A stretch of 64,000 nt of DNA from Thermoplasmatota archaeon (GTDB lineage: Archaea > Thermoplasmatota > JAKEGO01). Shown in pieces: positions 21,755-54,265 of this stretch (the first letter of the stretch is position 1; each line of letters opens with the position of its first letter). The stretch spans positions 63,713 to 127,712 of the forward strand of contig JANQNK010000008.1 of the NCBI GenBank assembly GCA_028279595.1, read 5' to 3'. The notes below the pieces were generated by a model. It did not search any database. It worked only from the letters and a program-made list of their open reading frames with translations, and was not told where the DNA came from. A program made the position numbers and the translations under genes.

Positions 21755-21780
21755 TCGACCATGTTGCGAGCGTAGGAGCA

Positions 21781-21828
21781 GGACGTTTGTATCTCCTGAC
21801 GAGAAGCCAAACGTCCGGGCCAGTCGAT
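21781..21828 (-). repeat. Partial type-B tRNA-linked structured element; 48-bp exact repeat of 22899-22946
   Basis: ggacgtttgtatctcctgacgagaagccaaacgtccgggccagtcgat occurs at both positions. Confidence 0.9.
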
Positions 21829-21870
21829 TCAAGCTGAAGAGTGCATGGGGCCCTGACCGATCGTTCCTCT

Positions 21871-22722
21871 CTACGACTCGCATACCTTCTCGCCCTTAAC
21901 GCCGATCGTAATATCCTTGATAGGGACATTGACTCCAGCGTCTGCCATCGCAGCCTTTACGACCTGTCCGAGGCCGAAACAGCAGGGGACCTCCATGTGC
22001 GCTACGGTGATCGATCTCAGGTCATTGTGTTCCATTATGGCTGCGAATTTCCTCTGGTAGAACTCCGCGTCGTCCAGCTTGGGGCATCCGACGAGAAGCA
22101 CTTTTCCCTTCAGGATATCCGTATGGAAGTTCGGGTATGCGAACGGGACGCAGTCTGCTGTGATGAGCAGGTCCGCGTTCCTCAGGTATGGTGCGTTCGG
22201 CGGGACGAGCATGGTTTGGACAGGCCATTGCCTGAGTTCGGTAGCCTGCCTCGGGGATGGACCACTTTCCGTTGATGGCCTGTCATGGGAAAGGTCGAGG
22301 ACAGCCGACCCGGGGCATTGGTGCGGGGTCTGGGGCGTCTCGTTACACTCTCCACCTCCCACGACCTCGGCAGGGGGCTCGATGCCCTGCTCCTCAAGGT
22401 ACTCAATTGCCTCGCTGAGGAACTCCTCCTCTCCGTGCTCCTTGAGGTGCAACAGGTGCGCTATCATCGTATTCGGCCCCGCCTTAATTATGTTCTCCAT
22501 GACCCGTCTCTCTTCGTATGGTTCCGCTTCCCGTTCCTCGATCTCGATCGCATCCTCAGGGCAATGGCCTATGCAAGCCCCCAGGCCGTCGCAGAAGAGG
22601 TCGCTGATGAGACGGACCTTGCCGTCTATTATCTGCAGGGCGCCCTCTGGACAGTTCGGTATGCAGTCCCCGCAACCAGTGCATTTCTCCTCGTCGATCT
22701 TGATGATCTTTCTGGTCGTCAA
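21871..22722 (-). CDS. 4Fe-4S dicluster ferredoxin-domain protein
   Basis: 'CTGCGDCIPNCP', 'CDGLGACIGHCP', 'QWPVQ', 'GCPKLDD', 'MEVPCC'; probable TTG start behind GGTGA. Confidence 0.9.
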   Translation of the reverse strand: MTTRKIIKIDEEKCTGCGDCIPNCPEGALQIIDGKVRLISDLFCDGLGACIGHCPEDAIEIEEREAEPYEERRVMENIIKAGPNTMIAHLLHLKEHGEEEFLSEAIEYLEEQGIEPPAEVVGGGECNETPQTPHQCPGSAVLDLSHDRPSTESGPSPRQATELRQWPVQTMLVPPNAPYLRNADLLITADCVPFAYPNFHTDILKGKVLLVGCPKLDDAEFYQRKFAAIMEHNDLRSITVAHMEVPCCFGLGQVVKAAMADAGVNVPIKDITIGVKGEKVCES

Positions 22723-22879
22723 TTTATCACCCACTTCTTCCATTTTGACATTGCTGTGGATCCCCATCGGCCATCCTACTTGATCCCCGACCGGAATGGA
22801 TACGCGGGACAGTTCGGCGATCCTCCTGTAGCTGACTCTGGCACCCGCCCTCGGATATTTATATTGATTCACGAACAAA

Positions 22880-23019
22880 TGGTGCGGGGGGAGGGACCGG
22901 ACGTTTGTATCTCCTGACGAGAAGCCAAACGTCCGGGCCAGTCGATGCGAAGCATCGACGTCTAGAAGCAACCATCAGCATCACCACTCGAGTACATTCT
23001 TCAGTTGACGTGAGAGTGG
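22880..23019 (-). repeat. Type-B tRNA-linked structured element ending in a 17-bp copy of the tRNA-Leu 3' end
   Basis: Hairpins gtcgatgc/gcatcgac and ccggacgtttg/caaacgtccgg; ends tccctccccccgcacca; homologous to 54022-54164 and 53741-53885. Confidence 0.85.
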
Positions 23020-23177
23020 TGGTGCGGGGGGAGGGATTCGACCTAGATGATGCTGCGCATCATCAGGGTTTGGAAAGACATCGCTGACAGATCGCTCTTT
23101 CCAAACACCCTTTTCAAGAGCGGGTTCTGAATCCACACTAGCACCATTCCTCCAATTACTCACAATTCAAAACGGAA
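23020..23177 (-). repeat. Type-A tRNA-linked structured element ending in a 22-bp copy of the tRNA-Leu 3' end
   Basis: 23020-23041 is identical to 23178-23199; hairpins tttggaaaga/tctttccaaa and gatgatgc/gcatcatc; homologous to 53623-53740. Confidence 0.85.
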
Positions 23178-23264
23178 TGGTGCGGGGGGAGGGATTCGAA
23201 CCCTCGGACCGCTAAGGACAGGGTCCTAAGCCCTGCGCCATTGGCCAGGCTAGGCTACCCCCGC
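23178..23264 (-). tRNA. tRNA-Leu (anticodon TAG), CCA encoded
   Basis: GCGGGGG acceptor, CAGGG-CTTAGGA-CCCTG anticodon arm, long variable arm, GGTTCGAATCC. Confidence 0.96.
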
Positions 23265-48344: not shown

Positions 48345-48491
48345 GGACCGAGATGGGAGCCAGAGATATAATCCTTGCTCCGTCTTGACTGTGCCGCTCC
48401 ATTGATGAGACGCGTTGGCCCCCGGACCGCGCCGGGGGCGAGCGCGTCAGTCAACCGCAAAACGTTATAGTGCCAAACGATATCATCCAAC

Positions 48492-48565
48492 GGGCCCGTG
48501 AGGTAGTCTGGATATCCTGCCGGCCTTCGGAGCCGGCCACCAGGGTTCGAATCCCTGCGGGTCCG
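48492..48565 (+). tRNA. tRNA-Arg (anticodon TCG)
   Basis: GGGCCCG/CGGGTCC acceptor; CCGGC-CTTCGGA-GCCGG; CAGGG-TTCGAAT-CCCTG; no encoded CCA. Confidence 0.93.
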
Positions 48566-48579
48566 TTTCCCCTCTAACT

Positions 48580-49566
48580 TCAGTTTTCGGCACTTTCAGA
48601 CCGTTTTCTGGCATATCGATTCACCTCTATACGATTTTGAGTTTGTCGGGTACCCGGTTGTGCATATTCTTGATGCATCAACTGGAGTCCTAATTTAACG
48701 TCATCGAACTTAATTCCGAGATATTTGATCGTCGTTTCAGTATTCGTATGACCAAGAGCATAACTTACAACAGCGACATTCTTTGTAGCATCGTACATCC
48801 TACGACCAAAAGTACGCCGTAGATCGTGAGCAGTGAATTCGATGCCTGAATTCACAGACACACGATGAACCAATTCATCGATAGCAGTACGCCGATATCC
48901 GACGATTTGATTCTTTCGTCTATGGACAATTAAACTACCATCATCGTAAACTGGTAACCCAGGAAATTTCATTGAAGCGATTTGCTTTTGTAAACCACGA
49001 TATTCAAAATATGTATTTAGAATATCAATGGTATCAGGATGAAATGGGAGATCCCGCTCCTTTCCATCTTTGTATCCTTTTCCACGTACCCGAATTCGTT
49101 CACGTTTCACATCTACTTCATCAAGGCGCATTCGAAGAGTATCAACACGACGTAATCCCAATTGTAACATTAAGTGAATGACAATTTCTTCAGTAGGTGC
49201 TTGAGCTACAGCTAAAACCCGATCAACCTCATCAGGAGTCAACCAACGACCAACCCGCTGATGTTCCGGAAAATATATTCGATATTTTTAAAGTACATCA
49301 TTTCCAAGAAATTTGAGATATAAATTTATTACACGATAATGCCATTCCTTAAGACCCAACGAGTCAAGTACTTGACCGACATCCTCAAGAGTCCAAACTT
49401 CAGGTAAGGACATCTCGTTACGATCTGAATATTCACAGACACGTTGAATTACTGACCTATAATCTCGAATTGTATTATTGGATACGCCCTTGGCTCGAAG
49501 CTCTCTCTCCCACCGATCAAGGTCTTCCGTTTGAATCGCTATCATCGGGACCACTTCAACAGGCAT
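48580..49566 (-). pseudogene. Tyrosine recombinase/integrase interrupted by one in-frame TAA (49288-49290)
   Basis: ORFs 49288-49566 and 48580-49242 share a frame and read ...NDVL*KYRIYFPEHQRVGRWLTPDEV; R (GLRR), K (RGKG), HxxR (HDLRR), LGH and Y (TIKY) are present. Confidence 0.85.
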
Positions 49567-50857: not shown

Positions 50858-50923
50858 CCGTTTCGCACACTCCAATAGGAGTATACATTTAACATTCTAA
50901 GATTATTTAACCCTTTCCCTAAG

Positions 50924-51007
50924 TGCGGGGGATGGGATTTGAACCCACGAACTCCTATGGATTAGTGTGCGAAACTAACGCCGTTGACCAAGCTTAGCTA
51001 CCCCCGC
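50924..51007 (-). tRNA. Non-canonical tRNA: tRNA-Leu body with Ala anticodon CGC
   Basis: GCGGGGG TA GCT AAGCTTGGTCAAC GGC G TTAGT TT-CGC-AC ACTAA TCCATAGGAGTTC GTGGG TTCAAAT CCCAT CCCCCGC A; aligns without gaps to host tRNA-Leu(CAG). Confidence 0.9.
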
Positions 51008-53593: not shown

Positions 53594-53622
53594 AGTGCAA
53601 ATGACAGAGGTGGATTGGAACC

Positions 53623-53740
53623 GTGGATCTAGGACCGGCTCCAGAATCGGGTCTTCGGGAAAAATTCTAGATCATATTGACGATTCCCGAAGCCGGACGG
53701 CCCGTAGGGTCGTCAAGGTCGAATCCCCTCTTCCGCAACA
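53623..53740 (+). repeat. Type-A tRNA-linked structured element (diverged copy)
   Basis: gtggat...acc.gctc..gaa..gggt; hairpins cttcgggaa/ttcccgaag and gacggccc/gggtcgtc; ends aggtcgaatcccctcttccgcaaca. Confidence 0.75.
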
Positions 53741-53885
53741 CCGTTCTCACGTCTCCTATCGATCGTACTCGAAGGGCGTTGCTCCATGACACCATCAAAC
53801 GTCGATTCCCTTGCTTCGGGAATCGACTGGCCCGTGGATTCCATATCGTCTCCGAATTGTGGAATCCCCGGTCCCTGCGGGTCCG
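53741..53885 (+). repeat. Type-B element ending in the tRNA-Arg 3'-end copy (right att)
   Basis: ctcacgtc...gtactcga; hairpin gtcgattccc/gggaatcgac, then tggccc, hairpin ggattcca/tggaatcc, then ccggtccc-tgcgggtccg. Confidence 0.8.
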
Positions 53886-53934
53886 CCTTTCCCCAAACGA
53901 TAATATAACCCTACATTGTTGCATGGAACCCCGT

Positions 53935-54021
53935 GCGGGGGTAGCCAAGCCAGGTCAACGGCGCTAGATTCAGGGTCTAGTCCTTAGCGGTCCGAGGGTT
54001 CGAATCCCTTCCCCCGCACCA
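53935..54021 (+). tRNA. tRNA-Leu (anticodon CAG), CCA encoded
   Basis: CTAGA-TTCAGGG-TCTAG arm, long variable arm, GGTTCGAATCC. Confidence 0.96.
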
Positions 54022-54164
54022 CCACCTTCTCGTCATTTCTAGATTATACTCAGGTGGTGGTGCTGGAAGATGCTTCTAGACGTCGATCCCCTTACCGCAG
54101 GGATCGACTGGCCCGGACGTTTGGCTTCTCGTCAATTCATTTCAAACGTCCGGTCCCTCCCCCC
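54022..54164 (+). repeat. Type-B tRNA-linked structured element
   Basis: Homologous to the reverse complement of 22880-23019, including tgcttctagacgtcgat...atcgactggcccggacgtttggcttctcgtca...caaacgtccggtccctcccccc. Confidence 0.85.
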
Positions 54165-54265
54165 AGGACCGCTCCTACTCCTCTATCCAATTCCTATCTC
54201 GATTGGTCTCTTGAGATTGATAGATGGACCAATCAATTATTAGGACAGCACGCGTATTACGTATC

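Follow-up and report, generated by a model that had tools for sequence, protein, structure and literature searches.

Modules behind tRNA-Leu(TAG)

The window analysed here, a stretch of 64,000 nt from a Thermoplasmatota archaeon (contig JANQNK010000008.1, assembly GCA_028279595.1), carries on its minus strand a tRNA-Leu(TAG) gene that is followed directly by two units, A1 and B1 (Table 1). [quoted passage not shown] The repeated "core" consists of the last 22 nt of the tRNA, from T-loop position 55 to the CCA; all 22 nt are common to the first and second copies, and the third shares 17 exact nt. These three copies confirm the A and B units that a first-pass annotation had placed behind this tRNA. 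Its layout was right as to the repeats and their spacing, but a unit is better seen as starting with a hairpin (H1) whose 5' arm is the tRNA-end copy that lies before it.

In A1, H1 comprises 10 bp (GCACCATTCC/GGAATGGTGC; arms 23183..23174 and 23150..23141), with a 5' arm formed by the tRNA-Leu(TAG) end GCACCA and the four flank bases TTCC. On its 3' side lies a four-way junction closed by GGATTCAGA/TCGAATCC (23134..23126 with 23041..23034), the closure being an inverted copy of the T-loop and T-stem paired with the direct copy. The junction holds the hairpins P2 (23125..23122/23110..23107), P3 (23106..23096/23078..23068) and P4 (23067..23057/23053..23042), and the unit ends in its right core, a 22-nt tRNA-end copy (23041..23020). 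In B1, H1 has 12 bp (23025..23014 with 22989..22978, GCACCACCACTC/GAGTGGTGATGC), starts with GCACCA and carries the loop motif CACGTCAA. It is followed by H2 (22959..22952 with 22948..22941), by H3 (22936..22926 with 22907..22897), whose loop motif is CTCGTCA, and by a right core of 17 nt (22896..22880).

Table 1. tRNA genes and modules in the window, with the evidence for each
Feature	Position	Strand	Evidence
Partial B	21761..21828	-	68-nt repeat, 90% identical to B1 (22879-22946); R1 match 21764-21864, E=1e-6
Unit B1, 140 nt	22880..23019	-	fold; model R1 150 bits; covariation
Unit A1, 158 nt	23020..23177	-	fold; model R2 146.9 bits; P3 and P4 covariation
tRNA-Leu(TAG), array anchor	23178..23264	-	ARAGORN; Rfam tRNA 56.5 bits
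tRNA-Arg(TCG)	48491..48566	+	ARAGORN; 14-nt identity with the B2 end
Unit A2	53598..53740	+	R2 95.8 bits at 53609-53740, model positions 36-167; GC profile
Unit B2	53741..53888	+	R1 146.8 bits (match 53729-53886); repeat D4; sequence
tRNA-Leu(CAG), anchor of B3	53935..54021	+	ARAGORN
Unit B3	54022..54168	+	R1 170.3 bits (match 54010-54168); sequence

Further copies in the window

Covariance models for B (R1) and A (R2) were built from the genome's own unit copies and searched on the window, where they recovered the previously reported recurrences of A, B and a partial B. In the partial B, H2 is represented by its 3' strand; H3 is next, and the degenerate core finishes in GCAACA. B3 lies directly 3' of tRNA-Leu(CAG), has an H1 formed by GCACCACCACCT/AGGTGGTGGTGC and a right core that stops short after CCCTCCCCCC. 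A2 lacks its 5' part, including H1, and has a core that ends in CCGCAACA. The H1 of B2 pairs with this GCAACA core of A2, and the right core of B2 (53872-53885) is an exact copy of the last 14 nt of tRNA-Arg(TCG). The terminal piece had been described as variable (Leu, Arg or a "gcaaca" form), and both the Arg end on B2 and the "gcaaca" ends are indeed real. Given that B2 pairs on its left with GCAACA and bears a tRNA-Arg core on its right, two tRNA ends are combined in one unit, which argues for exchange between loci.

A2 abuts the right edge of an AT-rich island that begins at the 3' end of tRNA-Arg(TCG) and extends from 48567 to ~53597 (30-46% GC versus 56-61% around it). The island contains a tyrosine integrase gene (48583-49563, minus strand) with an in-frame TAA, which therefore looks like a pseudogene. 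Its closest counterpart in the analysis, with 57% identity, is encoded by a 14.5-kb island that occupies tRNA-Pro(TGG) on contig C7; there, the related island separates the tRNA from its native module. No intact right-hand repeat of the tRNA-Arg(TCG) island was found next to A2. The GC content of A2 and B2 is host-like, and the last gene of the island starts 20 nt from A2. The host-like GC, the loss of H1 from A2 and the parallel at tRNA-Pro point to A2-B2 being a displaced tRNA-Arg array with a partly deleted junction. From the sequence, tRNA-Arg(TCG) is thus the probable original anchor of the pair, from which the ~5-kb island now separates it.

Some side observations were made in the same regions. 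The module ends at 53718-53740 and 21761-21782 carry GCAACA, not GCACCA, on differing acceptor-like sequences (CTTCCGCA and CGCTCGCA). The assembly, which is 86% complete, contains no tRNA that ends in either way. The island also holds an 85-nt tRNA (50923-51007, minus strand) with a leucine-type acceptor stem and long extra arm. Its anticodon, CGC, is one for the alanine codon GCG, and charging of the tRNA by LeuRS, if it occurred, would lead to mistranslation. Odd "allo-tRNAs" that it resembles have been reported from mobile elements. Finally, the 3' half of B1 and the partial B bracket a single gene for an Fe-S protein (4Fe-4S dicluster; Pfam Fer4; 21871-22746, minus strand; whole segment 21761-22946), the bracketing pieces sharing 48 identical nt and 68 nt at 90%. 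A gene between two B ends is a cassette-like arrangement. In a scan with the Fe-S protein, no tRNA was found near the relatives of this gene in 80 metagenomic loci (<=64% identity).

Structure and covariation

The modules have a common anatomy. They are ~140-175 bp long, gene-less, and arranged head to tail behind a tRNA. The 5' arm of H1 (10-12 bp) combines 4-9 flank bases with the final bases of whatever lies before the module, be it the tRNA itself or the tRNA-end copy of another module, and the H1 loop contains a conserved CGTCAAT-like motif. The inner hairpins vary freely in sequence and keep their geometry. B has H2 and H3, the latter with the loop motif again; in A the hairpins form the four-way junction, which is closed where an inverted T-loop/T-stem copy pairs with the direct one. 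The 3' end is a direct copy of the local tRNA, starting at T-loop position 55 in A and in the 3' strand of the T-stem in B.

Pairing is maintained to a high degree in both types. Among 44 B units from 6 genomes, 93.8% of the cells pair and 31 of 33 pairs show double-sided (compensatory) change; the observed pairing was matched by none of 500 shuffles, and slid partners pair at 42-51%. For 27 A units, P3 pairs at 94.5% and P4 at 98.3%, with double-sided change in 25 of 29 pairs. The loop motif CGTC[AG] is found in 35 of the 41 H1 loops and 29 of the 41 H3 loops of full B units. The module structure is under selection. The hairpins that had been quoted as kept while their sequence changes are present and covarying, and the covariation that the first-pass annotation had named as a test of its proposal is strong in A as well as in B.

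Modules across the genome

The assembly comprises 2.29 Mb in 21 contigs, is 86% complete and has 42 tRNA genes. Seventeen of these are followed, 97-230 nt downstream, by a copy of their own last 13 nt (<=2 mismatches), where ~0.1 would be expected by chance according to our own estimate. The tRNA genes with modules number at least 17, and probably ~22, of the 42, that is, about half. Based on model searches and blastn, A occurs behind the tRNAs for Leu(TAA), Gly(TCC), Gly(GCC), Ser(GCT), Arg(TCT), Thr(CGT), Ser(GGA) and Val(TAC), and twice each behind tRNA-Lys(CTT), tRNA-Cys and one unassigned tRNA; by the same searches B occurs behind tRNA-Leu(TAA), Gly(TCC), Gly(GCC) and Gly(CCC). A shorter module type, with H1 and an H3-like hairpin only, follows the Glu, Asp, Gln, Met and Arg(CCG) tRNAs. 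A recurrence at many more tRNA genes, another test named beforehand, is thus observed in this genome and also in others (see below).

The modules lie on the strand of the tRNA and the array begins at its last base. All strong model matches fall in such arrays with three exceptions, namely a copy that follows a 3' fragment of a tRNA, a copy at the end of a contig, and A2-B2, the pair displaced by the island. A full B unit away from any called tRNA (locus L006; contig C18 of this genome, G000, 304418-304595) has on its left a 29-nt fragment that resembles a tRNA 3' half and ends in CACTCACACCA, and on its right a Leu-type core.

At each locus the terminal copy agrees with the tRNA found there, and so does the complement in H1 or, in A, the longer inverted copy. 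A precedes B in 8 of 8 mixed arrays, which are not independent of each other. B units are mosaic, with a shared H1 combined with differing H3 types and vice versa. Over 8 arrays of this genome, the end copies have decayed to 14 mismatches in distal versus 3 in proximal positions, as insertion of new units beside the tRNA would predict.

Modules in related genomes

B was detected in 3 of 3 genomes of the class of the window, in all 16 genomes sampled from another family of this phylum, with 5 to at least 18 copies each, and in one further family. The model search did not find it in ~130 other genomes of the phylum, a search that can miss whole genomes (G009 scored negative yet has fragments). 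Since arrays are often located at contig ends in the metagenome-assembled genomes G001, G009 and G038, copy numbers are underestimated. Many of the contig breaks that such assemblies show at tRNA loci are due to the modules. Units in the relatives again follow tRNA genes immediately, in this case those for Gly, Leu, Ser and Arg, and tandem units are frequent.

An orthologous tRNA-Gly(GCC) locus, with flanks conserved on both sides, differs among three species of one genus: the first has a single unit, the second has two, and the third has two together with a 55-nt insert. For the extra unit of G029, the closest candidate donor copy is 89% identical. Ordinary unequal crossing-over between direct repeats could be an alternative source of such changes in copy number. 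In another family (locus L273, G137:C213, 700-960), an A-B array behind tRNA-Gly(TCC) is flanked by a repeat that consists of the tRNA end together with 21 nt of trailer (CTCATTATTGTYTAATTGTCC) and recurs after the last unit. A weaker similarity to the trailer exists in the window (9 of 13 nt after tRNA-Leu(TAG), and TTTCCCC after tRNA-Arg). No empty site was found; G009, a congener of G137, carries module fragments at contig ends and offers no clean one.

DNA or RNA

The first-pass annotation had left two readings next to each other, non-autonomous mobile or recombining DNA on the one hand and RNAs co-transcribed with the tRNA on the other. In the form of the second considered here, the tRNA-end copy paired with its inverted copy would be a processing signal by which small RNAs are released. 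Modules on the tRNA strand without a gap, the strong covariation and the maintenance of the structure across whole families would all suit it, as does the lack of a long T-run between tRNA and unit in GC-rich genomes. A T-run of at least 5 directly follows the core in only 6 of 41 B units, so read-through transcription is possible. In addition, the A hairpins have 15 G-U versus 2 A-C mismatches, as a sense-strand RNA would show, and the E. coli tRNA-linked repeats (TLRs), which share the hallmark of the modules, include three processed RNAs, RrA/B/F (PMC8144298). If the modules are RNAs, they would constitute an abundant new class of tRNA-linked small RNAs.

However, the B stems are 92% Watson-Crick and have 23 G-U versus 26 A-C among 1349 cells, compared with 22 versus 0 in the acceptor and T stems of the tRNAs of this genome. 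The lack of a G-U excess in B means that complementarity is kept symmetrically on both strands. In the predicted folds both strands of the array fold equally well; treated as single-stranded DNA, the tRNA end with A and B (310 nt) gave z = -7.4 for the sense and -9.8 for the antisense strand. With Rfam 15, the units had no match at E<=1, the tRNA model included, and only true tRNAs matched, which does not support the earlier suggestion of "tRNA-mimic" RNAs. Runs of T5-T7 directly after each core in some relatives also speak against the RNA reading, and neither the duplication of a 21-nt trailer nor the decay of distal cores is expected for a signal that every unit needs.

Known kinds of RNA were considered as well: by eye, we saw no bulge-helix-bulge, C/D-box or H/ACA element, and the H1 stems are perfect, without pockets. 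Overall, the evidence leans to a DNA-level element over an RNA. Of the two readings, the DNA one has been strengthened by the absence of a G-U excess in B, the changes by whole units, the trailer duplication and the boundary in the T-loop; the RNA one is now less favoured, with the 15 versus 2 in A standing on its side. We do not think that the modules are primarily RNA genes, and regard release of small RNAs from them as rather unlikely.

Mobility and recombinases

tRNA genes are classic landing sites for mobile DNA. Seven tyrosine recombinases are encoded in this genome, and integrase islands occupy its tRNA-Arg(TCG), Pro(TGG), Leu(GAG) and Leu(CAA) genes. The 18-nt repeat of the tRNA-Pro(TGG) island begins at T-loop position 56 and the repeat of unit A at position 55. 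The modules might be passive scars, that is, leftover att sites and end fragments of larger integrase elements that went into and out of tRNA genes many times, having no structure-dependent role; the islands in the genome and the start of their direct repeats in the T-loop, like that of unit A, are in line with this. But three or four hairpins are kept by compensatory change across archaeal classes, the interiors of the units are unlike the island ends, and unit lengths are tightly kept (140-148 nt here and 161-165 nt in one family of relatives), all of which makes an origin as mere scars highly improbable.

Candidate enzymes were sought in the genomes that bear modules. The Y1/HUH transposase (PF01797) was not found in five of the six such genomes tested (G000, G001, G019, G029 and G038; completeness of these 73-97%), which does not support the HUH substrates suggested previously and led us to reject mobilisation of the IS200/IS605 or RAYT type. 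An IS110/bridge-RNA system was rejected because its DEDD recombinase (PF01548) was not found in five of six (G000, G001, G002, G029 and G038), and a casposon or mini-casposon because Cas1 (PF01867) was not found in G000 and the unit ends are not mutual inverted repeats. The integrase of the islands was discarded as the general enzyme, its family occurring in 0 of 16 genomes of the other module-rich family.

As to genes in cis, a tblastn search with the seven integrases against 34 array loci of relatives gave one weak match, and clustering of open reading frames over 63 loci returned orthologous neighbours only and no recurrent gene. Adjacency, which had been proposed as a tally, is thus evident for tRNAs, with units directly behind them, and not for integrases, which show no linkage to the arrays. 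Plasmids and phages contained no copy by blastn; in viral contigs, the matches of two pattern scans were rejected by the models as chance and a third scan gave none. Near-identical copies at different loci were not found. With no enzyme found and no clear sign of recent movement, the case for mobility is built on anatomy and comparison.

Interpretation

The family of modules is real, abundant and structurally constrained. Our preferred reading, to which we assign a probability of roughly 0.45, is that the modules are insertion cassettes moved site-specifically at the DNA level, which fold back and form a lineage-wide family with A and B as two types. Whole units would be inserted, lost and shuffled through site-specific recombination at the tRNA-end copies. 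The process would be akin to that of integrase elements with a crossover in the T-loop: each new unit would enter beside the tRNA and push the older ones outward. The structure recognised would be the direct and inverted tRNA-end copies together with the hairpins, probably as extruded or single-stranded DNA, and a recombinase acting in trans, hypothetical at present, would be required. The boundary shared with integrase islands, the gain and loss of units, the trailer duplication and the age gradient along the arrays are what favour a DNA-level reading. The 100% prevalence in one family and the long-term conservation of structure are as compatible with a host function as with a selfish element.

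It is also conceivable that the modules are cis-acting DNA elements of the host with no mobility of their own (e.g., a protein-binding platform, a terminator, an insulator or a spare attachment site), inherited vertically and altered only when units are duplicated, cross over unequally or undergo gene conversion with the adjacent tRNA. Their presence in all 16 genomes of one family and all 3 of the window's class, the occurrence of B behind Gly and Leu tRNAs in distant families, the conserved loop motif of H1 and H3, the symmetry of G-U and A-C mismatches, and the fact that no transposase or linked integrase was found are consistent with such elements. Nevertheless, ~20 different tRNAs have the same module types behind them, in each case with a core and an inverted copy that fit the tRNA, which requires transfer between loci. 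The mosaic units argue in the same direction, as does B2, with its foreign left core and tRNA-Arg right core. Moreover, the island at tRNA-Pro entered the real tRNA and not the module behind it, so a role as decoy is not evident. We thus consider immobile host elements quite improbable.

To our knowledge, the region just behind archaeal tRNA genes is almost unstudied. In at least three lineages of archaea, the family is present at about one in two tRNA loci, and compensatory change has kept its structure over long evolutionary distances. If the modules are DNA cassettes, they would imply a recombination machinery unseen by current annotation and a novel route by which DNA can be docked at tRNA genes.

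Comparison with known systems

No description of archaeal tRNA-linked modules of this kind was found in the literature searched, and Rfam, plasmid and phage resources gave no match; this is apparently an undescribed family. The claim of a new family made at the outset therefore holds within the searches made, the threshold of E<=1 in Rfam included. Like REP, BIME and REPIN sequences and the palindromic elements of IS200/IS605, the modules are short, gene-less, folding repeats with compensatory change and no internal transposase. REP elements, unlike the modules, are dispersed between genes, are not tied to tRNA ends and have no copy of the end of a neighbour.

With the att duplications of tyrosine integrases the modules share a repeat of the 3' part of the tRNA that begins in the T-loop, an intact tRNA, the stacking of units at one site and a stronger decay of distal copies. 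This last feature also matches the pattern of tycheposons, tRNA-integrating elements in which new arrivals push older ones outward (bioRxiv 10.1101/2020.12.28.424599). They differ from integrase elements in being only 140-170 bp long, gene-less and devoid of an integrase, and in having an inverted copy and conserved hairpins; moreover, the integrase family of the islands was not found in the other module-rich lineage.

Recombination sites that are defined by the structure of a single strand are known from the attC sites of integrons (PMC4792948) and from the folded attP of the CTX phage (PMC3442271, PMC3089051). As in those, the structure of the modules is conserved while the sequence is free, direct and inverted copies of the target can fold into a duplex like the target, and cassettes pile up at one anchor. 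By analogy, the modules may be recombined as single strands. Unlike in integrons and CTX, no IntI-type integrase or other recombinase lies next to the arrays, and the anchor is a tRNA end instead of attI or dif. The R/L box pattern and the conserved extrahelical bases of attC were not seen in the units. A more specific version of the cassette reading would be an integron- or CTX-like system anchored at tRNAs. Tiny circles, probably single-stranded, would fold their direct and inverted ends into a mimic of the tRNA-gene duplex, and a host recombinase would read the CGTCAAT loops and recombine the circles into the T-loop region. The outcome would be stacks of gene-less and occasionally gene-bearing cassettes, of which the Fe-S gene segment (21761-22946) could be an example. 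In this detailed form we hold it to be unlikely.

The closest analogue, judged by description, are the TLRs of E. coli (Egan and Landy 1978; Rudd 1999; described in PMC8144298). This family has 22 members distributed over ten loci. Each member closes with 18-19 bp of the tRNA or 5S rRNA that precedes it, and most are of unknown function (PMC8144298). In both systems the unit follows its tRNA or rRNA gene immediately and in the orientation of that gene, measures ~100-180 nt, occurs one to five times per locus and ends with the gene's 3'-terminal sequence. The modules show this hallmark with 22 and 17 nt at tRNA-Leu(TAG) and with 13-nt copies at 17 of 42 tRNAs. While the first-pass annotation was correct about the A and B units, it missed this close analogy, along with the inverted tRNA-end copy and the genome-wide scale. 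The modules differ from TLRs in their inverted tRNA-end copy and their covarying multi-hairpin core, neither of which has been reported for TLRs. In addition, TLRs are bacterial, whereas the present family is archaeal, comprises several module types in a fixed order and is attached to about half of all tRNAs. Whether they are DNA or RNA, the modules are an archaeal counterpart to the tRNA-linked repeats of E. coli, which have been unexplained for 45 years.
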